DNA of 64,000 nt, from the NCBI GenBank assembly GCA_035288865.1, contig DATDZA010000016.1, forward strand, positions 3,945 to 67,944. The letters run 5' to 3'. This DNA is from Candidatus Nanoarchaeia archaeon (GTDB lineage Archaea; Nanobdellota; Nanobdellia; Woesearchaeales; GW2011-AR4). A program made the position numbers and the translations under genes. Shown piece after piece: positions 10,063-22,047 of the stretch (the first letter of the stretch is position 1; each line of letters starts with the position of its first letter). A model generated the notes under the pieces. That model worked only from the letters and a program-made list of their open reading frames with translations. It did no database searches and was not told the DNA's origin.

Positions 10063-10291
10063 ATGAATGGGGAAAATGCATTAGTTGTATTTCAAAACAA
10101 GAAAATCGGAAGAACTTGGTTTAAAGATGAATGGTAATTCTTTGGTTGATATAGTCCAAACTTTGACAGATAGTGTTAATCCCACCGATTATCTGAAAAA
10201 ACTGCGTAAAAGAGATGAAGAGCTTGGAAGCTACCTAGGGACAAATTGTCCCCATGTAGAAATGCTGACTGAAACTAGGTTTATCCCCTAA
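10063..10291 (+). pseudogene. Frameshifted, truncated remnant of a Bro-N-like (prophage antirepressor-type) gene
   Basis: ATG 10063 gives MNGENALVVFQNKKIGRTWFKDEW and then TAA at 10135. The +1 frame continues SLVDIVQTLTDSVNPTDYLKKLRKRDEELGSYLGTNCPHVEML. Read together, these match the N-terminus of a widespread Bro-N-type protein family as I remember it. The reading frame stops after about 75 codons. Confidence 0.5.
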
Positions 10292-10339
10292 AATTTATTG
10301 AACTTAACATTTAAATAGCGAAAACAAGTTCTGTGGCTG

Positions 10340-12352
10340 ATGGATAGTTTCAGGCAGGTTTGTGAAGATATTGTTAAGGAGCTTAAGAAAAGCAACATAA
10401 AAACACAGCGCCAGCTAAATAAGCTTAAGCTTCAAATTCTGAATAAATACAAGTCTAAGGGAAATATAATCCAAATACCAAAAAACGCTGACATATATTT
10501 TGCTGCTTCAGAAAAAGACAGGAAAAAGTTCATGAAGCTTCTTTCATTAAAGCCAGTCCGGACAATAAGTGGAGTTGCTCCGATTGCATTGATGTCAGAG
10601 CCTTATCCGTGCCCCCACACTTTGAAAGGAATAGGGCCGTGCACGTATTGTCCCGGAGGTCCGGGCTCTCCATTCGGGGATGTTCCGCAAAGCTACACCG
10701 GCAAAGAGCCGTCAACAAGAAGGTCAATAAGAAGCAACTACGACCCTTACATGATAGTTTTCAACAGGCTCGAGCACTATGTCGCAATGGGAAAAGTCCC
10801 TGACAAGGCCGAAATTATTGTTCAGGGAGGCACTTTCACATTTTTCCCAAAACTGTACCAGGAATATTTCATAAAATACGCGCTGAAAGCAATGAATGAC
10901 TTCTCAAGATTATTTTTCGACGCCGATGGAAACATAGACATGATGAAATTCAAGATTTTCTTCGAGCTGCCAAGAATAATCTCCGAAGAGGAAAAAAGAA
11001 CCAAGTCAATACAGATTAAATTACTAAAGATTAAGCATCTGGATTTAAGTAATTTGAAAATAAAAGAAGAAGTCGATGAGTGGTTTTTTAATTATAATTC
11101 AAAATACGAAAATAATCAGGGAGGGAACTTTATAATTGCACATGATGCAACACCATCCGCCCTCCACCCACCCCCTACTGTAGAACTCAACAGTGCCGGC
11201 AGTTCATTAAAGCTAATAAATTTGGATAATGCAAATGTCAGGGCAATAAAAAATATCCAGAATAAAATAAAAGTAGAAAATTTAACCCCTTTATCATTAA
11301 AACACATTCAGAAAGAAAATGAAACTGCCTTAATAAGATGTGTTGGCCTTACAATAGAAACAAAAAGTGATTTTGGAAAATTATATCACGGAAACATTAT
11401 GCTGGAATTGGGCTGCACGAGAGTGGAACTTGGCATACAGTCAATTTATGATAGTGTTCTTAGGTCAACCAACCGTGGAAACACAGTTGCCGATAATATT
11501 GAATCAATAAGAATTCTGAAAGATTTGGGATTTAAAATCAACGCGCATTATATGCCTGGACTGCCTTTGACAACAAAGAAAATGGATTTGAAAGGGTTAA
11601 GAGAATTATTTGAAAACCCGGATTACAAGCCGGACATGCTGAAAATCTATCCGTGCATGGTGATGGAAGGAACAAAATTGTATGATGAATGGAAAGCCGG
11701 AAAGTTTAGTCCTTTAAAAACAAAGGAAGCCGCTGAAATTATTGCAGAAGCGAAAAAATACTTTCCTGAATTCGTAAGGATCACCAGAATACAGCGCGAC
11801 ATACCTACCTATATGACAGCAGGGGGGGTTGACAGAACTAATTTAAGGCAATACGTTGAGATACTGTGCAAAGAAAAAGGAATAAAATGTCGTTGTATAA
11901 GATGCAGAGAAGCTGGATTAAATTCAATTCAAAACAAAAAAATTGATCTAAAGAATCTTAGAATAAAGGTTATAGAATATAATGCCTCACATGGCAGAGA
12001 ATTCTTCATAGCCGCAGAAGACAAAGAAACAGATATATTATTTGGATATTGCAGGTTAAGATTCCCCTCACAAATCCTAAGAGAGGAAATAACAAAAGAC
12101 TCTGCATTAATAAGAGAAATTCATGTATATTCAGCAGCAGTCCAGATAGGAAAGAAGTCAGATGAAAGTTTCCAGCATAAAGGCATAGGCAAGCAATTAA
12201 TGGCGAGATCAGAGGAAATTGCGAAAGGGCATGGGAAAAATAAGATTGTTGTAATAGCCGGAATTGGGGCCAAACAGTATTTTTCCAAGCTTGGATATAC
12301 CTATGATGGCCCATATATGTCTAAGCATATACCACTGGACATCTCTGCCTAA
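10340..12352 (+). CDS. elp3: Elp3-type radical SAM/GNAT tRNA U34 carboxymethyl-modification enzyme, carrying a large internal insertion
   Basis: Radical SAM cluster CPHTLKGIGPCTYCPGG. Also IVQGGTF, RCVGLTIETKSD, TRVELGIQS and a C-terminal GNAT motif QHKGIGKQLM. At 670 aa it is longer than typical archaeal Elp3. Confidence 0.9.
   Translation: MDSFRQVCEDIVKELKKSNIKTQRQLNKLKLQILNKYKSKGNIIQIPKNADIYFAASEKDRKKFMKLLSLKPVRTISGVAPIALMSEPYPCPHTLKGIGPCTYCPGGPGSPFGDVPQSYTGKEPSTRRSIRSNYDPYMIVFNRLEHYVAMGKVPDKAEIIVQGGTFTFFPKLYQEYFIKYALKAMNDFSRLFFDADGNIDMMKFKIFFELPRIISEEEKRTKSIQIKLLKIKHLDLSNLKIKEEVDEWFFNYNSKYENNQGGNFIIAHDATPSALHPPPTVELNSAGSSLKLINLDNANVRAIKNIQNKIKVENLTPLSLKHIQKENETALIRCVGLTIETKSDFGKLYHGNIMLELGCTRVELGIQSIYDSVLRSTNRGNTVADNIESIRILKDLGFKINAHYMPGLPLTTKKMDLKGLRELFENPDYKPDMLKIYPCMVMEGTKLYDEWKAGKFSPLKTKEAAEIIAEAKKYFPEFVRITRIQRDIPTYMTAGGVDRTNLRQYVEILCKEKGIKCRCIRCREAGLNSIQNKKIDLKNLRIKVIEYNASHGREFFIAAEDKETDILFGYCRLRFPSQILREEITKDSALIREIHVYSAAVQIGKKSDESFQHKGIGKQLMARSEEIAKGHGKNKIVVIAGIGAKQYFSKLGYTYDGPYMSKHIPLDISA
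11118..11173. repeat. 56-nt repeat element, copy A, in frame inside the Elp3 insertion
   Basis: AGGGAGGGAACTTTATAATTGC..(19 nt)..GCCCTCCACCCACCC. It shares 20 of its first 22 nt and all of its last 15 nt with copy B at 23858-23912. Confidence 0.75.
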
Positions 12353-12524
12353 GATATATAAAGGGGTACATCCTCTAATTCTGAAAAAGAGAACACGCAA
12401 AACTGCCAAATTAAGTCTTTTGGTCTTCGACACGAAAGCCTATTACGCAGTTTCGCTTAACATTCTCTTTTTCGTAAGACTCCAAAGTCTTTGGAAAACA
12501 AAAAACTTTGGAGGTTTGATAAAA

Positions 12525-13724
12525 ATGATAGATAAAATAAACATTACAGGTTTCCCAAAAAATGTGTTTATAGAATTACCTAATAATTATAGGAATATAC
12601 TTTTTCAACTAGTTTTCTTAGAGTCAAAGAATGCAAGAAATGTAATAAAGTCATTGAAAGAGAAAGGGCTTAAGGAAAATATCTTTAGATGGAGAAGAGG
12701 TCACGATAAAGGATTGCCCCAATTCATAAATTTGGAATCTTTGTTATTCTTGCTCTATAAAGCTCAAATTTCAAGAATTAATATTCAGAAAAAAGTGCAT
12801 GTAATTAAATTAAGGATTCGGGGTTATAATGAAAGGGTAGAAAAATCAGAAGAATTAATTTCATTGATAAGGAGTATAAGGTATATTTTAAATGGCAGTG
12901 GTAAGATGGCCCAGGCATTTAAAATGAATCCTAGAACTTTAAATAAGTACATCAGTAACAAAAAGATAAAAAAACTGCCTATTGATTTTGTGATTAGGTT
13001 AGTGAAATTTGCTGAGAGCAATGTATTATGCTTCAATTTGACAATTAATGAGCTGCAAGACAAGATAATCTCTTATCAAGCATATCACGGGAAATATATA
13101 AAACCAGAATTTCAAGGTGCACGAAAGTTACCAATTCAAGTAACTCCGGAATTTGAATCAATTGTCTATCATCTTATGGGTGATGGTCATGTAAAAGCAA
13201 TTGGTTCTGGTGAATACACTCAATTAAGTGACGAAGGAAGAAAGAATTTCTTGAATAAGTTGTACAATGTCTTTGGATATTTTGAAATAACAGAAAAAAG
13301 TTTCAGTGATGGCAGGGTGATTATACCAAGAGTTATAATAGATATAATATGCAGATATTACAATCTAAATTATGATAGCTTCAACTGGAATACTTCAAAA
13401 TTACCCTTAAATATATCAAGTAACGCAGATTTCAAAATAGCTGGGTTATCTGCTTTCATAGTAGATGAAGGCCATATAAATAATAGGGGAATAGAAATTT
13501 ATTCCGGAAATCGGCAACTTCTATCAGAAATAAGAACTCTTGCAGTTGATTTAGGATTAGATTGTTCAGACCTAAAAGCTAAAAAGCCTAATGGCAACTC
13601 AAAAGAGTCTTATAGATTTAGGATAAGAAAGGAAAGTTCTAAAGAATTCTTGAAAATGGTTGCTAATCTGAAGAAAAATTATCAGTATTGCGGCTTGGCA
13701 CAGAAAGAAAATTTAATGCTTTGA
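12525..13724 (+). CDS. Free-standing double-motif LAGLIDADG homing-endonuclease-like protein with an N-terminal HTH-like region
   Basis: ATG at 12525 preceded by GGAGGT. Two LAGLIDADG-type motifs are present: VYHLMGDGHV and LSAFIVDEGHI. Its 3' end overlaps the convergent RT gene by 12 nt. Confidence 0.72.
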   Translation: MIDKINITGFPKNVFIELPNNYRNILFQLVFLESKNARNVIKSLKEKGLKENIFRWRRGHDKGLPQFINLESLLFLLYKAQISRINIQKKVHVIKLRIRGYNERVEKSEELISLIRSIRYILNGSGKMAQAFKMNPRTLNKYISNKKIKKLPIDFVIRLVKFAESNVLCFNLTINELQDKIISYQAYHGKYIKPEFQGARKLPIQVTPEFESIVYHLMGDGHVKAIGSGEYTQLSDEGRKNFLNKLYNVFGYFEITEKSFSDGRVIIPRVIIDIICRYYNLNYDSFNWNTSKLPLNISSNADFKIAGLSAFIVDEGHINNRGIEIYSGNRQLLSEIRTLAVDLGLDCSDLKAKKPNGNSKESYRFRIRKESSKEFLKMVANLKKNYQYCGLAQKENLML

Positions 13725-14741
13725 TATTTGTTTAATCACTTTATTTCTCAACTTGTAAGTATTGGCCCACATTGCATATCCGAGCCAGCCTTGCAGGCTT
13801 TGAGCAAAATCTTCACGGCTTATATTTTTATTTTTATAAAGTTCTAATTTCTCCTTAAATTGCCTCTCAAATTTTCTTTTATTCGCCTTCCGTAGCAGCT
13901 TATGATAATAAAAAACCCTGAAGCCTAATAAATTCAAACCTTTGTCCAGTTTAATTATCTTTGACTTACTAGGGTGCAATTCAATTTTAAGATATCCAGT
14001 AAGAAATTTATTTATTGCTTCTTTGTATTTCTCGAGATTTTTGTAATCTTTATCCAATATTACAAAATCATCAACATATCTGATGTAATATTTTGCTTTT
14101 AATTCATGCTTGACGAAATAATCAAGCTCATTCAGATAAACATTGGCAAAAAATTGGCTGGTAAGGTTTCCCAAAGGCATTCCAATACCGTCACGCCCCC
14201 CCCCAATTTTATGGTTTTGCAGAATGGTGTTTATTAGCCAAATTATCTTTTTGTCTTTAATTTTCTGCCTGATAATATTTAATAATATTTCATGATTAAC
14301 AGTTTGAAAATAGTGCTTAATATCGCATTTGAGAACAAAGCAATTCCCGGTATTGTTTTTAGAAGCTTTTCTCTTAAAATAATCAAATCTTTTCAGGGCT
14401 TTTATTGTTCCCTTACCTTTCCTGTTTGCGTAGGAATCATAGACAAATAATTTTTCAAAAATAGGCTCTATGATATTGCAGAGTGCATGATGAACTACCC
14501 TATCTTTGAATTCTGATTTGCTTATTTTTCTTGTTTTTGGGTCCCTAATGATGAATGTTTTGAGAGGTTCTGGCTTGTAAGAGTGGAGAAATAATTCAGT
14601 TCTGAGAGACAGAAGATTTTCTTTAAGACTCTTCTCGAAATTAAGTACGTACGGCTTCAATGTCTTGTGCCTTCTTGCTTTTCTGAAAGCCAGAAATAGG
14701 TTTTCATAGCCGCAAAGCTCTTGCCACAGGTCTCTTCGCAT
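13713..14741 (-). CDS. DGR-type reverse transcriptase
   Basis: Starts MRRDLWQELCGYENLFLAFRKA. Motifs RVVHHAL, SYANRKGKG, DIKHYFQTV, LGNLTSQFFANVYLNELD (the SQ signature of DGR RTs) and YIRYVDDFV (YxDD). No maturase or endonuclease domain is present. Confidence 0.9.
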   Translation of the reverse strand: MRRDLWQELCGYENLFLAFRKARRHKTLKPYVLNFEKSLKENLLSLRTELFLHSYKPEPLKTFIIRDPKTRKISKSEFKDRVVHHALCNIIEPIFEKLFVYDSYANRKGKGTIKALKRFDYFKRKASKNNTGNCFVLKCDIKHYFQTVNHEILLNIIRQKIKDKKIIWLINTILQNHKIGGGRDGIGMPLGNLTSQFFANVYLNELDYFVKHELKAKYYIRYVDDFVILDKDYKNLEKYKEAINKFLTGYLKIELHPSKSKIIKLDKGLNLLGFRVFYYHKLLRKANKRKFERQFKEKLELYKNKNISREDFAQSLQGWLGYAMWANTYKLRNKVIKQISKH

Positions 14742-14768
14742 TTTAATGGAAGTCTCAGCACTTTGGAC

Positions 14769-14862
14769 TATTTCGAGCAAGCCATTGTTGGCATTGCCAA
14801 CGTTCCTGTCATTGGCATTGAACCTAGAGCCATTGTCAGCCCTGTTAAGCCTAGAGGCACGG
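14769..14862 (-). repeat. DGR template repeat (TR)
   Basis: 94 nt that align without gaps to 15208-15301 (offset 439). 83 positions are identical. All 11 mismatches are plus-strand T, meaning A on the transcribed minus strand. The TR ends 27 nt upstream of the RT start codon. Confidence 0.87.
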
Positions 14863-14967
14863 CAGCTTGTAGCTCTTTTGCCGTATTTGCACTGCTGTTT
14901 CAAGCATATCTCTAAAGATATTTGTCACAGCTGTATTTTATGACAACGATTTTCACATTGCCGTAGC

Positions 14968-15000
14968 AAAAAAGCGTGTAGTCCAGCATTTCTAATGCTG
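14968..15000 (-). terminator. Hairpin plus T6 downstream of the DGR target gene
   Basis: On the minus strand: CAGCATT-AGA-AATGCTG (7-bp stem, 15000-14984), then TTTTTT (14973-14968) 10 nt further on. Confidence 0.4.
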
Positions 15001-15036
15001 AGACAAAATAAGAGATTAAGAATGAATTAATAAAAA

Positions 15037-15873
15037 TTATGTTTTTGGCGTGTATCCTATCTTTGCTAGAACTTCTGTTAGCCTATTATGCAGTGCAGGT
15101 GGCACTAATTCTGCTAACATTCTGTATCCATTATCATAAGGCATTAATTCTTTTACCGGCAATGCCGAATCTTCAATTTTTGCGGGCGCCTTCGGCGCTT
15201 CCTTCAATACCCCGAGCAAGCCACTGTAGGCATAGCCAACGTCCCTGTCATCGGCATCGAACCTAGAGCCATAGTCAGCCCAGTTAAGCCTAGAGGCACG
15301 GGCTATTGCACTGTCTTCTTTGCCTTTAAGCTGCTTTTTTACGTAATCTGACTTCAAGACATAAACTCTGTCGCCAGGCTTTGCTCCTTTGCCATAAATG
15401 GCTTCTGTGAAGTGCCTTTGCGCATCATTCATATTCTTAGTTTTAAAATAACCAAATTCATCGCCTGGATTGTGTATTAGCTGCAAGTCTGGAATTTTTA
15501 TTCTTAGTGCTTCTCTTGTGCTTACTGCATCAACAACTTCCTGGATTCCTTCCCTCGATGGAATATAATTATTAGTTTTCAATAATTGAGAAGTAAAATT
15601 TTGGATATCTCTAAAGCCAAGATTGTGCTCTCTCCCAGTAAAATAAAGAAAAGCTTCGCTTTCTTTCGAAGTCTCATCTTGTTCAACTCTATACATAGAA
15701 AAATTATTTGTCCATGTCCATAAGTTTCTTAGTTCGGGTTTTGATTCCCTTAATTCCATTATTTCATGGGCTTCCAATTCAGTTCCTGAAACTATCCTAG
15801 AATGTGCATCAAGTAGTGGTCCTGGAGCATATCCTACGTTTGTTAATCTGTTCTCTAAGGTTGCCTGTGGCAT
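15037..15873 (-). CDS. DGR target (variable) protein; the N-terminal domain has unknown function
   Basis: 278-aa ORF. Residues ARASRLNWADYGSRFDADDRDVGYAYSGLLGV are encoded by the VR. Another 56 codons follow the VR. Confidence 0.85.
   Translation of the reverse strand: MPQATLENRLTNVGYAPGPLLDAHSRIVSGTELEAHEIMELRESKPELRNLWTWTNNFSMYRVEQDETSKESEAFLYFTGREHNLGFRDIQNFTSQLLKTNNYIPSREGIQEVVDAVSTREALRIKIPDLQLIHNPGDEFGYFKTKNMNDAQRHFTEAIYGKGAKPGDRVYVLKSDYVKKQLKGKEDSAIARASRLNWADYGSRFDADDRDVGYAYSGLLGVLKEAPKAPAKIEDSALPVKELMPYDNGYRMLAELVPPALHNRLTEVLAKIGYTPKT
15186..15198 (-). other. GC-only hairpin 9 nt downstream of the VR 3' end (candidate DGR homing-enhancing stem-loop)
   Basis: On the minus strand: GCGCC-GAA-GGCGC (5-bp stem, 3-nt loop). 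No equivalent structure follows the TR. Confidence 0.5.
15208..15301 (-). repeat. DGR variable repeat (VR)
   Basis: Counterpart of the TR. It differs from the TR only at TR adenines, changing 7 of the 8 Asn (AAY) codons to Tyr, Asp or Ser, and Arg AGG to Trp TGG. Confidence 0.87.
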
Positions 15874-15982
15874 TTTATTCTTGTAGTAATTGTCTATTTA
15901 TAAATCTTTCGTTTTATTACCATAGTAAAGTAGTTACAAATTTGTAATAACATTTAAATCAAAAGCAAAATTCCGTTCCAGA

Positions 15983-16933
15983 ATGCAGTCCACTCCATTC
16001 CATAATTTTAATGAAATAACATTCAAACCCAAATTTATCGATAGGTATTCTAAATTAACGGACTGGGAAGAATTCAAAACATGCTCATTATCATTTCTGC
16101 ACCGCTCAATCAGGGTCAACACTTTAAAAATTTCAGTCAAAGAATTAAAAGAAAAACTGGAGAAGAACTGGAATCTTGAGCAAGTTCCATGGTGCAATGA
16201 GGGTTTTTTGATAGAGCATGTAAAAAAAGAACGGCGTGATATCGGAAATTTAATCGAGCATTCTTTGGGATATTTCTACATTCAGGAAGCGGCATCAATG
16301 ATTCCGCCGATTGTTCTTGAGCCAAAACCGCATGAAATTGTTCTTGACATTGCAGCTTCTCCAGGCTCTAAAACAACACAAATTGCACAGTATATGGAAA
16401 ACAAAGGAATTTTGATAGCAAATGATTATACTTATGAAAGAATGAAGCCGCTTTCAATCAATTTGCAGAAATGCGGCGTTACAAACACAATAATAACTTT
16501 AATGGACGGCCAGTGGTTCAAAAAGTCCGGAATTGAATTTGACAGAATCCTAATCGATGCGCCGTGTTCCGGCACTGGAACAATCAGAAAAAGCCTGAAA
16601 ACAATCGGCATATGGAATCCTGACATGATTAAACGGCTTTCAATAACTCAAAAGCAACTAATAGAAACAGGATTTAATTTATTGAAAGAAAACGGAACTT
16701 TGGTTTATTCAACCTGTTCATTGGAGCCGGAAGAAGATGAAGGGGTAGTTGATTTTTTGATCAATAAATATGAAAATGCTAAATTAGAAGAAATAAAATT
16801 AAATTTGAAAAAATCTCCGGCAATTTTGGAATTTGAAGATAAAAAATATTCAGATGAAATTAAAAAATGTTTAAGAATCTGGCCGCAGGACAATGATACA
16901 GAGGGATTCTTCGTGGCAAAGATAAGAAAATAG
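15983..16933 (+). CDS. NOL1/NOP2/Sun (RsmB/Trm4-like) RNA cytosine-C5 methyltransferase
   Basis: Motifs DIAASPGSKTTQ (SAM site), DAPCSGTGTIRK and YSTCSLEPEE. Confidence 0.85.
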   Translation: MQSTPFHNFNEITFKPKFIDRYSKLTDWEEFKTCSLSFLHRSIRVNTLKISVKELKEKLEKNWNLEQVPWCNEGFLIEHVKKERRDIGNLIEHSLGYFYIQEAASMIPPIVLEPKPHEIVLDIAASPGSKTTQIAQYMENKGILIANDYTYERMKPLSINLQKCGVTNTIITLMDGQWFKKSGIEFDRILIDAPCSGTGTIRKSLKTIGIWNPDMIKRLSITQKQLIETGFNLLKENGTLVYSTCSLEPEEDEGVVDFLINKYENAKLEEIKLNLKKSPAILEFEDKKYSDEIKKCLRIWPQDNDTEGFFVAKIRK

Positions 16934-17052
16934 TAGATTAATTGTTTAATGTGGAAATCATAAATTATTCTTCGGTGAGTGATGTCCATTACTTTAGCAA
17001 GACAGAAAATATTAAAGACGAATTATGATTAAATAGGATTCCAAAAATTTGC

Positions 17053-17517
17053 TTAGAGTACTCTTTTAGTTATATAAGGACTTAGAAATTGCCGTCTGTC
17101 CTTATTCGTATCGACATAAACTACAACTGGCGTATCCTTATATGCAGTAGGATTTCTTAATAGAGTGTCAATATATGTATACAGCTTGCTTATCGTGTGT
17201 AACTTGGATAGCATCACATCCGGTTTTATTTCATCTGCCGCTTCCATAAAAGTCGGCTTTACACTTTCGTTTGTATAAACTACCACCGGAAAATGATTTC
17301 GCCTGCTTGCTCTAGCGTCCCTAACTAGGTCTATCAGCCTGTAATTATTTTGGACTACATCAATAATCTCTGCTATTAAAAGCGAGATATCATTTCCGCC
17401 AATCAAATCCCTGGCTTGGGGAAACGATTCGGCCTCTAGCACCCTTTTAGGATAATTTTTTTTAAGCGCTTCTCTTACAAAGGCCATAGGATCCGCCAGA
17501 AGTATCAATCCTTTCAT
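17053..17517 (-). CDS. Hypothetical protein, possibly a degenerate receiver-like fold
   Basis: 154-aa ORF. MKGLILLADP...SLLIAEI is patterned like a CheY receiver but lacks the acidic pocket residues. Confidence 0.4.
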   Translation of the reverse strand: MKGLILLADPMAFVREALKKNYPKRVLEAESFPQARDLIGGNDISLLIAEIIDVVQNNYRLIDLVRDARASRRNHFPVVVYTNESVKPTFMEAADEIKPDVMLSKLHTISKLYTYIDTLLRNPTAYKDTPVVVYVDTNKDRRQFLSPYITKRVL

Positions 17518-17651
17518 TTTATTTCGGTTAAAAGAGGTGTAATATTAAATTTATCCATTTTTTATAATTAGGTGCCTCAAAGATTGAAAGATATTCAAAT
17601 ACCTGGAAAAAATATTAGAAATAAATTATTCCAACAAATCTTTAATTGAGT

Positions 17652-17966
17652 TCAATTTTTTATTTTAATGCTCCCTATAGGTCGGCCTTCCATATTGTAC
17701 AAAAAAATTCTATTAGTGTCGGGCTTTACATATTTTCGGTTATTTCTTCTAAAAAATCTGCCCCAGAGCTGATATCTCTCCACTATTTCTGCATTGGGTG
17801 AGAAGTAAAAATGGCCATCTCGTAGTTCAATATACCCTATACTGTGGTTGGTAATATCTTCCAAATTTATGTGAGCAGGAACTGTAACATCATACCTGCC
17901 ATCAGAAAGTTTGGCTGCAAAAGTTGTTTTCACTCCTGAATCCACAGCTTCGTAAGAAACTTCCAT
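17652..17966 (-). CDS. Hypothetical protein
   Basis: 104-aa ORF with no overlapping alternative reading frame. No motif recognised. Confidence 0.45.
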   Translation of the reverse strand: MEVSYEAVDSGVKTTFAAKLSDGRYDVTVPAHINLEDITNHSIGYIELRDGHFYFSPNAEIVERYQLWGRFFRRNNRKYVKPDTNRIFLYNMEGRPIGSIKIKN

Positions 17967-17977
17967 TTAAAACTAAA

Positions 17978-18508
17978 TCACGCTTTTCCTTTCAATGACT
18001 TGCCGTTTATTTCCAGTTCTTTAATCTTAGTCTTAAGAAAATCAATTGTTTTGGTATTGTCCTGATGGTTTAATATAGAGCCGCATTCCGGGCATCTGTA
18101 TTCCAAATCAACGGCCTTTTCAAATCCAACTCTAACGCACGCATTTGGACATAAATAAAAGTTTCCAAAATTTGCTTCCTCGTCTTTAAGCCTTTGAGTA
18201 TATTTTGAAAGTTTTTCTTTTGATGTCCTGTCTAGCAGTTCCTTGACCCTCTTCTTGTTGAACGTCCAATAGCTTATATACCATCCTTTTTGCCTGTCTT
18301 TCTTTCTGTAATAAGAAACAAGATTATGATTATAAAGCCTGTAAAGAATGTTTCTGACTTCGTGAATGTCCCTGTCAACTTTCTCGGCAATTTTGAAATC
18401 CGAAATATTCTTCTTATCTTTAAGATACTCAATTATCTTCAACGAGTCTTCTCCAATAACTTCCTTTACTGTATCATTAACTTTGTTGTTTGTTATTTTC
18501 ATTGCCAT
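17978..18508 (-). CDS. tfe: Transcription factor E (TFE alpha, TFIIE-alpha homolog)
   Basis: Winged-helix N-terminal region (IIEYLKDKKNISDFKIAEKV..RNILYRLYNHNLVSY) and a zinc ribbon CPNAC..CPECG. The start was moved to MAMKITNN. Confidence 0.8.
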   Translation of the reverse strand: MAMKITNNKVNDTVKEVIGEDSLKIIEYLKDKKNISDFKIAEKVDRDIHEVRNILYRLYNHNLVSYYRKKDRQKGWYISYWTFNKKRVKELLDRTSKEKLSKYTQRLKDEEANFGNFYLCPNACVRVGFEKAVDLEYRCPECGSILNHQDNTKTIDFLKTKIKELEINGKSLKGKA

Positions 18509-18817
18509 TGTTATTTCCTGCCATCCAAGGCACAGTAAATCTATATTCACTAAGTGAAATGCTAATCAAAGGGCATAGAACTGCCCCCAACCAAATCACC
18601 CCTATACACCCCCTAATTAATTATAGTAACGAACAGCAAATGCGGTAAATAATCATAACAATAGAGCTAGAAGCCTACTGCATAGTTCTCTCGGGCATGG
18701 TATATATAAACTTTACTATTATAAAATATCTACTTTATAAAATATATATTAGATAATATTATTCGATTCAGGATTATGTGATAAAAGTTTTTATATTGAT
18801 TGTTATTTCCCGGATTG

Positions 18818-19240
18818 ATGGCAACAGAAAAGAGCTGCGGAGCAGTTGTTTTTAAACGAATGAAAGACAATTCTGCAAAATACCTGATTCTCCATTATAC
18901 AAATGGGCATTGGGAATTTCCAAAAGGCCACATGGAAAAGAACGAGAAAGAAGAGCAGACTGCAATGCGCGAGATAAAAGAGGAAACCGCTTTGGATGAT
19001 GTTGATTTTATTGACGGATTCCGGGAAACGGTGAAATATTTTTTCAAGAAAGGCGAAGATACAGTTTATAAGGAAGTTATTTTTTTCCTTGGAGAAACCC
19101 ATTCTGATGAGGTCACATTATCAAACGAGCATATAGGATATGCATGGCTAAATTACGAGCATGCTCACAAGAAATTAAATTTTAATAATTCTAAAGAATT
19201 GCTGGAGAAAGCTGAAAAGTTTTTGCACTTGCATGTATGA
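18818..19240 (+). CDS. NUDIX hydrolase
   Basis: Nudix box GHWEFPKGHMEKNEKEEQTAMREIKEETAL. ATG at 18818 is preferred to the TTG at 18800. Confidence 0.85.
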   Translation: MATEKSCGAVVFKRMKDNSAKYLILHYTNGHWEFPKGHMEKNEKEEQTAMREIKEETALDDVDFIDGFRETVKYFFKKGEDTVYKEVIFFLGETHSDEVTLSNEHIGYAWLNYEHAHKKLNFNNSKELLEKAEKFLHLHV

Positions 19241-20215
19241 TTATATAGAGTAATTTCTTAAATCTGTTTTAGGCCAGCTTCCCTTATATAGTTTTCTTTC
19301 TAATGCCCAAGCACCAACTAAATTTACATTACTCCCAAGTACACTAGATTCTACTTCAGGTATCGCCCTTCCAATTATCTTGAAGCGGTATTTCACATGA
19401 TCCGTGACCATATCTAAGAATTTCGTTCCCCAGTTGTTGGAAATCCCTCCGCCCAAAACAATAAGTCTTGGTTCATGCTCAAAATTCATTTCTGAAAGCG
19501 CTTTTGCAGTATTATCTGCAACCAGGTCTTGAACTATATAATCAGATTCCCATGGCTCAACTCCATACCTTGCTTTAAAATGTTTCCCGCTTATCCACGT
19601 TTCTACACAGTTTGGCTCTTTACAATGGCCGCAACTTATGCTTGCTAGATTAGGTGCTCTCCCATTAAAAGAATGATGTCCGGCTTCACGATTTTTTCCA
19701 TTGGGATTTAAGTAAATCTCAAAACCTTTTGCTGATTTAACGGATGTTTCTGCTCCAAATCCAGTGCTTATTGTAACATAAAGCAGCGGGAATATCGCGT
19801 CTTCTAATTCTTTTTCGGCAATTTTTTCAAGAGTTGCGCCTATTGCTGCCATATAAGCATCACTTTCAATTATTATTCTCGGATATCTTCCTCCATTTGA
19901 CCTTATTATACTCAAGACAATATTCTCAAGTTTTCCTTTCAGGCTAATCCCTCCCCAATGTGGGAGGTTTGATGGATTTGCCATAAAGTGTCCATTACCG
20001 CCAGCCTCTAATGCAGGAGCGCCCCCGGAAATTGCCTTTATATTCAAATCATTCAATGAATGTTCCAAGGTCTCATGAAAGTATCTCACTGCCCCTCCTG
20101 GATCTTGGGGAGTTGGCTGTAAAATTCTTACAGGTTCTAGAAAGTTTCCCTCATAATCCATTACAGCGGTTGCTATTTTAGTAGCTCCAATGTCAAATAC
20201 GAATACGGAATGCAT
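19241..20215 (-). CDS. ROK-family sugar kinase-like protein
   Basis: N-terminal FVFDIGATKIA ATP-binding motif and a Cys-rich zinc motif CGHCKEPNCVETWISG. Confidence 0.7.
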   Translation of the reverse strand: MHSVFVFDIGATKIATAVMDYEGNFLEPVRILQPTPQDPGGAVRYFHETLEHSLNDLNIKAISGGAPALEAGGNGHFMANPSNLPHWGGISLKGKLENIVLSIIRSNGGRYPRIIIESDAYMAAIGATLEKIAEKELEDAIFPLLYVTISTGFGAETSVKSAKGFEIYLNPNGKNREAGHHSFNGRAPNLASISCGHCKEPNCVETWISGKHFKARYGVEPWESDYIVQDLVADNTAKALSEMNFEHEPRLIVLGGGISNNWGTKFLDMVTDHVKYRFKIIGRAIPEVESSVLGSNVNLVGAWALERKLYKGSWPKTDLRNYSI

Positions 20216-20334
20216 TTAAATCCATTTTAGAAATTAACTTAATTTTTTAAAAGTTTCTATAAAAATAGGGTTTTGAAAAATAAATGAATTTTATCAAACA
20301 AAACTTTAAATATAATAAAATTAAAACTATTTCT

Positions 20335-22047
20335 ATGAAAAACATTGAAGTCGCAGCGCTTCTCAATGAAATCGCGGATTATCTTGAGTTCCAGAATGAG
20401 CCGTTCAAGGTAAGAGCTTACAGGAAAGCTGCCCTGATGATTAACGGACTGTCGGAAGACATCGAGCAGGTTTGGAATAATAACAAACTGAAAGAATTGC
20501 CAGGAATCGGCGAGGGCATTGCTAAGAAAATTGATGATTTTCTAAAAAACGGCCGTTCAAAACATCTGGATGAATTAAAAAAGAAAACTCCCGTAGACAT
20601 GGAGCAGCTTGGCGCAATTGAGGGTATTGGCCCAAAAACAATTCTAAAACTCTATTCAAAATTAAAAATAAAAAACACAAAAGATTTGGAAAAAGCCGCA
20701 AAAGAGGGAAGCATACAAAATATAGAAGGCCTAGGCCCCACAGTTGAAAAAAATATTCTGCAAAGCATAGCGTTCGCAAAGAATTCAAGCAAAAGAGTCC
20801 CTTTAGGATTTGCTTTAAGCGATGCTGAAGAAATTATAGGCATGCTCAAAACATTGAAAGAAGTTAAAAGGGTAAATATCGCAGGCTCTGCAAGAAGAAT
20901 GAAAGAAACAATAGGCGACATTGACATTCTAGTCACGTCATCCAATCCGCAGAAAGTGATTGATTTTTTTACGAAGATGCCAAATGTTGCGCAGGTTCTT
21001 GCGAAAGGCAGCACAAAATCTTCAGTCAGGCTAAAAGAAAGAATTCAGGCTGACTTGAGGGTTGTTGATGATAAAATTTTCGGGGCTGCATTATTATATT
21101 TTACAGGCAGCCAGCAGCACAACATAATTCTAAGAAAGCTGGCAATCGAAAGAGGATTGAAATTAAGCGAGTACGGATTGTTTAACAGAAAGAATGACAA
21201 ATTAATTGCAGGAAAAACTGAAGAAGAAGTTTATCAGAAATTGGAGCTCGATTATATTGAGCCAGAGATGAGAGAAGATAAAGGTGAAATTGAGTTAGCG
21301 CACCGCCGCATGCTGCCAAAAATCATCGGATATAATGACTTAAAAGGCGACTTGCAGATGCACACAAAATGGAGTGACGGCTCGAACACAGTCGAAGAGA
21401 TTGCCCTCGCTGCAAAAAAACTTGGGCATGAATACATTTGCATAACTGACCACTCCGGAAGATTGGCAATTGCAAATTCACTTGATGAAAAAAGAATTCT
21501 GCAGCAGAAAAAAGAAATTGAAAAAATAAATAAAAACATTAATGGACTAACAATTCTTCACGGAACTGAAGTCAATATAGCAGAAGATGGAAGCTTGGAT
21601 ATGAATAACAAGATTTTGCAACGCCTTGATATTGTTGTTGCTGCAGTTCATTCCGGATTCAAAAATTCCAAGGAAAAAATAACAAATCGGATTATTAAAG
21701 CAATGCAGAACAAAAATGTGGATATTATTGCGCACCCGACTGGAAGATTGATAACTAAGAGGGAAGCTTACGAAATTGACCTGGATAAAGTTTTTGATGA
21801 AGCAAAGAAAACAGGAACTGTGATGGAAATAAATTCTTATCCGGAAAGGATGGATTTGAAAGATTCTAATGTAAGGGCTGGAATAAAAAAAGGCATTAAG
21901 CTGGTGATTAGCACTGATGCGCATGCAACAAGCCAGCTGCATTTTATAAAATTAGGAATCGGAACGGCAAGAAGAGGATGGGCAACGAAAAACGACGTTA
22001 TAAATACGAGAAGTTTAAAAGGTATGTTGAAAATGCTGAAGAAATAA
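20335..22047 (+). CDS. polX: Family X DNA polymerase with C-terminal PHP domain
   Basis: Helix-hairpin-helix motifs (LPGIGEGIA, IEGIGPKT), the Pol-beta nucleotidyltransferase motif GSARRMKETIGDIDILV, and a PHP domain (HTKWSDGS, CITDHS, STDAH). Confidence 0.9.
   Translation: MKNIEVAALLNEIADYLEFQNEPFKVRAYRKAALMINGLSEDIEQVWNNNKLKELPGIGEGIAKKIDDFLKNGRSKHLDELKKKTPVDMEQLGAIEGIGPKTILKLYSKLKIKNTKDLEKAAKEGSIQNIEGLGPTVEKNILQSIAFAKNSSKRVPLGFALSDAEEIIGMLKTLKEVKRVNIAGSARRMKETIGDIDILVTSSNPQKVIDFFTKMPNVAQVLAKGSTKSSVRLKERIQADLRVVDDKIFGAALLYFTGSQQHNIILRKLAIERGLKLSEYGLFNRKNDKLIAGKTEEEVYQKLELDYIEPEMREDKGEIELAHRRMLPKIIGYNDLKGDLQMHTKWSDGSNTVEEIALAAKKLGHEYICITDHSGRLAIANSLDEKRILQQKKEIEKINKNINGLTILHGTEVNIAEDGSLDMNNKILQRLDIVVAAVHSGFKNSKEKITNRIIKAMQNKNVDIIAHPTGRLITKREAYEIDLDKVFDEAKKTGTVMEINSYPERMDLKDSNVRAGIKKGIKLVISTDAHATSQLHFIKLGIGTARRGWATKNDVINTRSLKGMLKMLKK

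Follow-up and report, generated by a model that had tools for sequence, protein, structure and literature searches.

We analyzed a 64,000-nt stretch of a Candidatus Nanoarchaeia genome (assembly GCA_035288865.1, contig DATDZA010000016.1; hereafter the window), the minus strand of which carries a gene for a hypothetical protein (the target), a structured RNA, and a reverse transcriptase (RT) gene in close succession. Two near-copies of a 94-nt sequence lie in this cassette, one within the 3' part of the coding target gene and the other, invariant and non-coding, in front of the RT gene. This is the layout of a diversity-generating retroelement (DGR), with the first copy as the variable repeat (VR) and the second as the template repeat (TR). 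With a probability of roughly 0.93, we read the locus as a chromosomal DGR of the nanoarchaeal (DUSEL4/AvpA-like) type that is active or was so very recently. The parts of the element, including the initiation of mutagenic homing site (IMH) and its TR counterpart (IMH*), are listed in Table 1 in the direction of transcription.

Table 1. Features of the retroelement and its surroundings in the window
Feature	Coordinates	Strand	Description
TATA-like box TTTATAAATA	15895..15904	(-)	about 22 nt upstream of the target ATG; putative archaeal promoter, from sequence only
Target (variable protein) gene	15037..15873	(-)	278 aa; exact match to NCBI HLC60316.1, 'hypothetical protein', Candidatus Nanoarchaeia metagenome-assembled genome (MAG)
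VR	15208..15301	(-)	codons about 191-222 of the target; mutagenised part 15213-15301
IMH CGGGGTA	15208..15214	(-)	non-variable 3' end of the VR; fixed in six alleles
Hairpin GCGCC-GAA-GGCGC	15186..15198	(-)	GC-rich, 9 nt past the IMH, within the target open reading frame (ORF)
TATA-like box TTTTTATTAA	15027..15036	(-)	22 nt upstream of RT-16; putative promoter of an RT-16/TR/RT transcript
RT-16 RNA (Rfam RF03019)	about 14864..15004	(-)	structured RNA, ends 2 nt before the TR
TR	14769..14862	(-)	94 nt; 22 mutable adenines, 14 variable codons, 8 AAY
IMH* CGAAATA	14769..14775	(-)	TR counterpart of the IMH
Post-TR element UAGUCCA-A-AGUGCUGAGAC	14752..14770	(-)	complementary to the RT-16 5' end (15004-14994, about 14985-14979)
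DGR reverse transcriptase gene	13713..14741	(-)	342 aa from ATG 14741; RVT_1; ORF intact

Repeat pair and homing signals

The alignment of the TR with the VR is ungapped and contains 83 identities and 11 mismatches, each of which lies at a TR adenine (11/11). An earlier annotation of this DNA, here called the sequence-only reading, had proposed the same pair with the same identity, and our recount reproduced all eleven of its mismatch coordinates, its total of 26 adenines in the TR (base composition A26 G24 C23 T21), and the lack of any substituted C, G, or T. For 11 mismatches placed at random over the 94 positions, the probability that all fall on the 26 adenines is 1.1e-7. An independent repeat search recovered an 89-nt core of the pair, whose members are 439 nt apart, and no further VR-like copy was found within the window. 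The earlier claim that 11 of 26 adenines had been substituted stands only in part: the eleven mismatches are indeed at adenines, but three of them make up a fixed difference between IMH and IMH*, which leaves 8 of the 22 adenines of the mutagenised stretch (the first 89 nt of the TR) substituted in the window allele. The peptides read from TR and VR were correct on re-translation, with seven of the eight AAY codons changed, and the AAY-rich template was rightly described as free of the risk of nonsense mutation, since none of its variable codons can give a stop codon. Together, the 14 variable codons could encode about 3e12 proteins.

The fixed difference is an AAA to GGG block (TR 14773-14771, TR positions 90-92) that is unchanged in 6/6 alleles of the locus and thus marks an IMH/IMH* boundary rather than stochastic mutagenesis. 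Both signals expected for DGRs, the IMH/IMH* pair and a hairpin after the VR, are present in the window. In previously described nanoarchaeal DGRs, the IMH contains TGGGGT, the IMH* contains TGGAAT, and hairpins with a GRA loop lie inside the target gene (Paul et al., 2015; PMC4372165).

Target-profile scans returned three loci in reference genomes and six loci in metagenomes, several of them uninformative, with the target at a contig end. Seven related cassettes (L004, L006, L007, L015, L116, L118, and L119 in our numbering of loci) all carry a GGGGT element that matches the TGGGGT of Paul et al. (2015) and show the contrast of GGGG with GAAA or GGAA at the 3' end of the repeats. Mismatches between TR and VR fall at adenines in 12/13 cases in L004, 9/9 in L006, 14/14 in L007, 12/12 in L015, 12/13 in L118, and 10/10 in L119; in each of these six, the homology ends at GGGGT versus G[A/G]AAT, and a GC hairpin is present. 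Drift is seen in the seventh cassette, L116, where adenines account for 18 of the 29 mismatches and other bases for 11. The hairpin stems have changed in a compensatory manner, to TCGCC/GGCGA in L004, GTCGCC/GGCGAC in L116, and GTCGGC/GCCGAC in L119.

The type to which the element belongs is already documented in Nanoarchaeota, as the sequence-only reading had held for DPANN-type archaea in general, and the window cassette is a well-documented example of it from a very large, already described DPANN lineage. It shares with the DGRs known from DUSEL4 single-cell genomes of Nanoarchaeota (PMC4372165) the DPANN host, the target-TR-RT order, an IMH with GGGGT against an IMH* with GAAAT or GGAAT, and a GRA-loop GC hairpin within the target; unlike them, the sub-lineage of the window has CGAAAT rather than TGGAAT as its IMH*.

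Two observations concern the genomic setting of the related cassettes. In L118 (1166-2953), the cassette adjoins a 23S rRNA gene with a LAGLIDADG_1 ORF inside it. Locus L004 (CAYVNO010000006.1), with RT-16 and the TGGGGT/TGGAAT signals, lies on a 72-kb contig that was binned as an uncultured Methanosarcinales archaeon; for a cassette type that is otherwise restricted to DPANN, this reflects mis-binning or else a transfer between a DPANN archaeon and a lineage that may serve as host.

Variation of the repeat among sister assemblies

Population-level heterogeneity of the VR, which the sequence-only reading had proposed as a check, was approximated with five sister assemblies of the same genome. 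Their TRs are identical to that of the window (6/6). Over 4-11 kb around the cassette, the six genome segments match one another except for their six different VRs, with zero changes in the TR or the RT; such a pattern requires that the VR turn over at a rate far above that of background mutation. In the several kb that surround the cassette, the sister contigs differ from the window in the VR only, at 58 adenine-cognate positions and 3 others; beyond the VR, divergence is limited to patches where L013 and L014 reach their contig ends. In the comparison of sister contig L001 with the window (21873..10222), 11,652 bp aligned with 10 differences, all of them in the VR and opposite TR adenines. 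Across the six alleles, 75 of the 78 variable TR/VR mismatches are at adenines, and every mutable TR adenine is substituted in at least one allele (22/22). Because the differences are confined to the VR and lie nearly always opposite TR adenines, this population evidence points to an element that is, or very recently was, active. Six VRs beside one TR in otherwise identical segments constitute an unusually clean natural demonstration of DGR activity, and the six alleles also separate the fixed IMH boundary from the mutagenised positions.

Between the alleles L011 and L012, all differences lie in the 3' third of the VR (TR positions 68-88), which is the outcome expected of homing that begins from the 3' end and at times overwrites just part of the VR. 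At the protein level, the 90%-identity cluster of the target comprises ten members from different assemblies, which are invariant over residues 1-194 and diverge from the VR onward.

A cassette of this composition could also be a fossil, with recognizable parts but with homing ceased and old VR differences. Decay does occur among the relatives: locus L016 retains only RT fragments, having lost the TR and RT-16, the drifted L116 has its 11 non-adenine mismatches, and the RTs of L004 and L006 are frame-broken. In the window, however, the RT ORF is intact, and the presence of six VRs in genomes that are otherwise the same over 4-11 kb, with the substitutions directed at adenines and both TR and RT unchanged, makes a fossil very improbable. 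We find it hardly credible that the VR varies without reverse transcription, through ordinary mutation or recombination under diversifying selection or through assembly artefacts at the repeat. Although assemblers do mishandle the VR region, as the target relatives P0177 and P0178 (truncated within the VR) and the chimera-like P0176 illustrate, none of these processes would confine the changes to the partners of adenines in a second copy that lies 439 nt away and stays unchanged (for the window pair, P about 1e-7; 75/78 over the six alleles), nor would they recreate the same pattern in six further divergent cassettes.

Protein P0176 has residues 1-194 exactly as in the window protein and continues with the VR and C-terminal tail of P0002 and P0007, the N-terminal domains of which are unlike each other. 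Such a protein has arisen either through chimeric assembly, with the join in the conserved VR scaffold, or through real exchange of a VR-plus-tail cassette.

Reverse transcriptase and target protein

RVT_1 was the sole domain detected by Pfam in the RT. In agreement with the sequence-only reading, the RT gene starts 27 nt downstream of the last TR base, and its translation contains LGNLTSQ and YVDD. The relationship check against group II intron and retron RTs that had been suggested with it gave 8ub7_A as the best relative in the PDB (328 aa, E 7e-48, 167 bits, residues 3-332, end to end), whereas the best group II intron RT structure reached E 1e-24, retron-type and defence RTs were weaker, and no group II or retron structure exceeded 90 bits. 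In the numbering of 8ub7_A, an Arg stands at position 74, and an Ile at position 181 is the first residue of IGSLTSQ; these agree with the published positions R74 and I181 of the RT of the Bordetella phage DGR (bRT) and with the signature DGR motif [I/V/L]GxxxSQ (PMC7826257), and the chain was therefore taken as bRT. The window RT keeps the R74 equivalent (DPKTRKIS), has Leu at the I181 position within LGNLTSQ, and ends with the thumb as bRT does, and no maturase or endonuclease extension was found on it. Its placement among DGR RTs is by structure-match scores and motif. In the model libraries, the group II model TIGR04416 (NCBIfam) scored 166 bits, below its 300-bit cut-off, and the retron and defence-RT models of NCBIfam and PADLOC scored far below theirs.

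A group II intron or retron RT beside a chance or duplicated gene fragment, as might be suggested by the NCBI and JGI labels on close relatives, by those 166 bits, and by the speculation of Weinberg et al. (2017; PMC5737381) that many of the RT motifs are components of retrons, can be set aside as practically negligible, since the score is far under the cut-off, the bRT match is far better than those to group II and retron structures, the motif is LGxxxSQ and not QGxxxSP, maturase and endonuclease domains are lacking, Rfam returned RT-16 only, with no retron RNA family and no group II intron RNA even at E up to 1, and duplication cannot account for an adenine-specific, directional TR-to-VR pattern with an invariant TR.

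The RT clade comprises at least 7,987 proteins at E below 1e-30, and the best-scoring named relatives come from Woesearchaeota and Nanoarchaeota. Most of these are mislabelled; NCBI and JGI list close relatives as 'group II intron reverse transcriptase domain-containing protein', 'reverse transcriptase/maturase family protein', or 'retron-type reverse transcriptase', and the targets appear in public records as 'hypothetical protein'. Some gene calls extend the RT to 396 aa by starting at TTG 14903, which adds a 54-residue extension spanning the TR (14742-14903 on the minus strand; isoelectric point (pI) 10.2, 5.9 kDa). We rejected the translation of the TR as an N-terminal part of the RT because the alignment with bRT begins at Met 14741 and the frame is broken in L007 and L015. 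The TR is open in the RT frame in 3/5 cassettes, these two being the exceptions, and its continuity with that frame is thus incidental.

Two features of the RT genes deserve mention. The window RT gene, with 33% GC overall, contains a G9 homopolymer (14196-14204 on the minus strand, within KIGGGRD) just upstream of LGNLTSQ. The tract is G9 in all six sister contigs, G5 in L007, and missing in L015; in L004 (about 6860-6900), a G9 at the same site accompanies a frame that is off by one nt and that a one-G slip would restore, and in L006 (4700-4950), about 35 codons are inserted and the frame is broken there. The tract could act as a slippage-based on/off switch of the RT, or it could be an error in the assembly of a homopolymer. 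Among the close relatives of the RT (60-64% identity), many (e.g., P0225, P0227, P0233, P0258, and P0267) are 450-595 aa long and end in a C-terminal PF14493 (HTH_40) fusion, possibly a built-in accessory domain in part of this clade, which lacks the accessory protein Avd.

The target protein had no match in Pfam, NCBIfam, or PADLOC, and a PDB profile search with 27 family members gave none at E up to 10. Its family includes 26 close relatives and about 200 representatives at 50% identity, and the alignment reveals a scaffold, SAIARAS.L..A..GS.F.A...V.....GLLGVLKEAPKAP, that is broken by hypervariable columns and followed by interchangeable C-terminal tails. An AlphaFold (AF2) model of the target reached a pLDDT (predicted local distance difference test) of 75 and a pTM (predicted template modelling score) of 0.71, being confident for residues 20-200 and disordered for 224-253. 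In Foldseek searches with this model, the pLDDT of which is 62-81 across the VR, the only PDB match below E 1e-3 was AvpA (5ioo_A), at E 2.6e-4, probability 1.0, a template modelling (TM) score of 0.59 by target length, a root-mean-square deviation of 5.4 Å, and 11% identity. The viral fold library BFVD gave no match to the model.

AvpA has a C-type lectin fold, a VR at residues 181-210 with an invariant Phe, a last strand encoded by the IMH, and a disordered tail (Handa et al., 2016; PMC5006420). The window target resembles it in its length (about 260-280 aa without a recognizable domain), in an AAY-rich VR of about 30 residues with the invariant Phe, in the IMH-encoded final strand, and in a disordered C-terminal tail of about 50 residues. 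Unlike AvpA, the target family lacks sequence homology to this protein and its three published motifs: GxxVVVYAH, HPxxxPFxG, and RFxGV are absent, with GLLGV at the position of the last. Since sequence homology to AvpA is undetectable, we treat the target as a fold-level relative and not as a family member, and the model suggests that it probably has an AvpA-like C-type lectin fold. A link between the two is provided by L118, where the target is a true AvpA homologue (E 5e-51) in a cassette with RT-16, the same IMH and hairpin, and an RT 61% identical to that of the window; this cassette ties AvpA to the RT clade and RNA family of the window. Targets without transmembrane or other recognizable domains are also a feature of the archaeal 'clade 5' of Roux et al. 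(2021; PMC8144416).

The DGR assignment made in the sequence-only reading draws support from the mismatch recount, the RT relatives, and the VR heterogeneity among sister contigs. Several points weigh against our interpretation of the locus as an active DGR of the AvpA-like type. Three VR differences among the six alleles, all C to G, are not at adenines. The VRs come from metagenome assemblies and are consensus calls that may blend variants, and the element is known here from its sequence alone. No Avd (PF05635, E below about 0.004) was detected in the cassette or among the 29 small ORFs of the window. The target model is only moderately confident across the VR, and the link to AvpA is by fold alone, with an hhalign probability of 2% against the AvpA homologue of L118 and no sequence match in the PDB.

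Further observations relate to the target family. At least four types of interchangeable tails follow the conserved GLLGVLKEAPKAP. Some relatives have no intact RT or TR nearby: a second target paralogue (L003/L008) occurs in the same Nanoarchaeota MAG as locus L002, the relative at L017 adjoins MazE/PIN toxin-antitoxin genes, and that at L016 lies beside the decayed RT; L003 and L017 have no RT in the vicinity at all. Such RT-less relatives may be targets diversified in trans or frozen relics.

RT-16 RNA in a cassette without Avd

Avd is essential in the prototype DGR of phage BPP-1. No Avd candidate was found in the seven related cassettes either, and the description of the window element as a complete DGR thus holds in the minimal sense (target, TR, and RT) but not with respect to Avd. 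As Avd proteins are poorly conserved, a very divergent one could still be encoded elsewhere in the genome; nevertheless, the element would appear to work without Avd. The only ORF between target and RT is the TR-spanning one of 54 codons, whose size and pI would qualify it as Avd-like by the standard once applied to DGRs of Nanoarchaeota, where small basic ORFs between target and RT were put forward as possible Avd (Paul et al., 2015). According to Wu et al. (2018; PMC5758913), Avd accompanies about 74% of DGRs, and the 26% of the curated set without it have architecture A1, a TR-RT core, which the minimal window cassette with no accessory gene resembles.

The spacer between target and TR is not empty. 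These 170 nt are a full-length match to RT-16 (15001..14864, model positions 1-158 of 158); the covariance model gives 74.5 bits, where the gathering score is 50. In every one of the eight intact cassettes (the window, L004, L006, L007, L015, L116, L118, and L119), which span three unrelated target families, RT-16 sits directly at the 5' edge of the TR. In Weinberg et al. (2017), only RT-10 is tied to DGRs and RT-16 is given no function; the location next to an RT gene reported there is also seen here, in addition to the position at the TR edge (8/8). The available portions of the surveys by Wu et al. (2018) and Roux et al. (2021) do not connect such cassettes to any Rfam RNA family. In viral contigs, a search with a 15-mer of RT-16 gave 94 matches, about the number expected by chance and none with flanking RT-16 blocks, and neither of the 2 loci retrieved with a two-block pattern contains RT-16. 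Five cassettes have a TATA-like box 22-32 nt upstream of RT-16, which suggests that RT-16, TR, and RT form a single transcript with the approximate boundaries implied by Table 1.

When the whole RNA was folded, the minimum-free-energy structure selected a long-range duplex between the 5' end of RT-16 and the post-TR element (z -3.45). The predicted duplexes of the eight cassettes range from -21 to -35 kcal/mol. In the 8-bp core of the duplex, 98% of the cells pair and 4 of the 8 pairs are changed on both sides, a result reached by 2 of 500 shuffles, although the core segments had been selected on the basis of the predicted duplexes and L119 by itself accounts for three of the four double changes. 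For BPP-1, a duplex between the upstream and downstream parts of the DGR RNA has been reported as conserved across taxa, including Nanoarchaeota, and the flanks of the window TR can pair in the manner of the BPP-1 avd:Sp 'cPRT Stop' duplex. The two elements further share the end-to-end alignment of their RTs, with the R74 equivalent and [I/V/L]GxxxSQ, as well as adenine-specific TR-to-VR transfer, IMH and IMH*, and a hairpin after the VR. They differ in that the BPP-1 order is mtd-avd-TR-brt, whereas the window lacks Avd, has a TR-RT spacer of 27 nt instead of about 140 nt, and carries RT-16 upstream of the TR in place of the downstream RT-10 of BPP-1; the window DGR is also chromosomal and archaeal rather than phage-borne, and 56 codons follow its VR.

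By analogy with the BPP-1 duplex, RT-16 and its pairing with the post-TR element may have a role in the DGR RNA. Tentatively, and at odds that we consider well short of even, we propose that RT-16 is a dedicated cis-acting RNA module of a very large Avd-less clade of DPANN DGRs, and that pairing of its 5' end with the post-TR element closes the TR in an RNA domain that takes over part of the role of Avd and the Sp RNA as RT scaffold, cDNA stop, and possibly source of the priming nucleotide. If this were true, the orphan Rfam family RT-16 would gain a function and a minimal two-component DGR, consisting of RT and RNA, would be defined.

In the mechanism that we envisage, a transcript would start from the TATA-like promoter overlapping the end of the target gene and carry RT-16, the TR, and the RT ORF. 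The RT would reverse-transcribe the TR with misincorporation opposite adenines only, and the cDNA would take the place of the VR, which lies in the 3' part of the gene. The difference between IMH (CGGGGTA) and IMH* (CGAAATA) would give the process its direction, with the GAA-loop hairpin located 9 nt past the IMH as an aid. In this way, 14 codons of a ligand-binding surface would be rewritten on an AvpA-like protein, probably of C-type lectin fold, with about 3e12 possible proteins and no stop codon. The variable surface presumably binds a ligand, and DPANN archaea probably depend on surface contacts with their hosts.

The element is one more DGR in a DGR-rich lineage and leaves the general picture of DGR biology unchanged. 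Its new content is modest: RT-16 is assigned to the DGR RNA of an Avd-less lineage, and the AvpA-like targets gain a new sequence family. With about 200 representatives at 50% identity, this unannotated family of DGR targets, given its probable AvpA-like fold, widens the range of scaffolds for hypervariation in DPANN. At about 2.2 kb, the compact Avd-less element would suit tests of priming and termination on the DGR RNA and the engineering of targeted mutagenesis.

Downstream of the RT gene, a 486-aa ORF on the plus strand (12264-13724) converges on it with a 12-nt overlap and has a weak match to LAGLIDADG_3 (E 0.006, below the Pfam cut-off). In L004, a large ORF downstream of the RT looks LAGLIDADG-like by eye only. 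We considered such ORFs as a recurrent accessory and discarded the idea, the window and L004 ORFs being non-homologous and the other cassettes having none. The 5' end of the 486-aa ORF overlaps the 3' end of an Elp3-like gene (10340-12352, 670 aa), and sister contig L013 departs sharply from the window exactly at 12085-12277.

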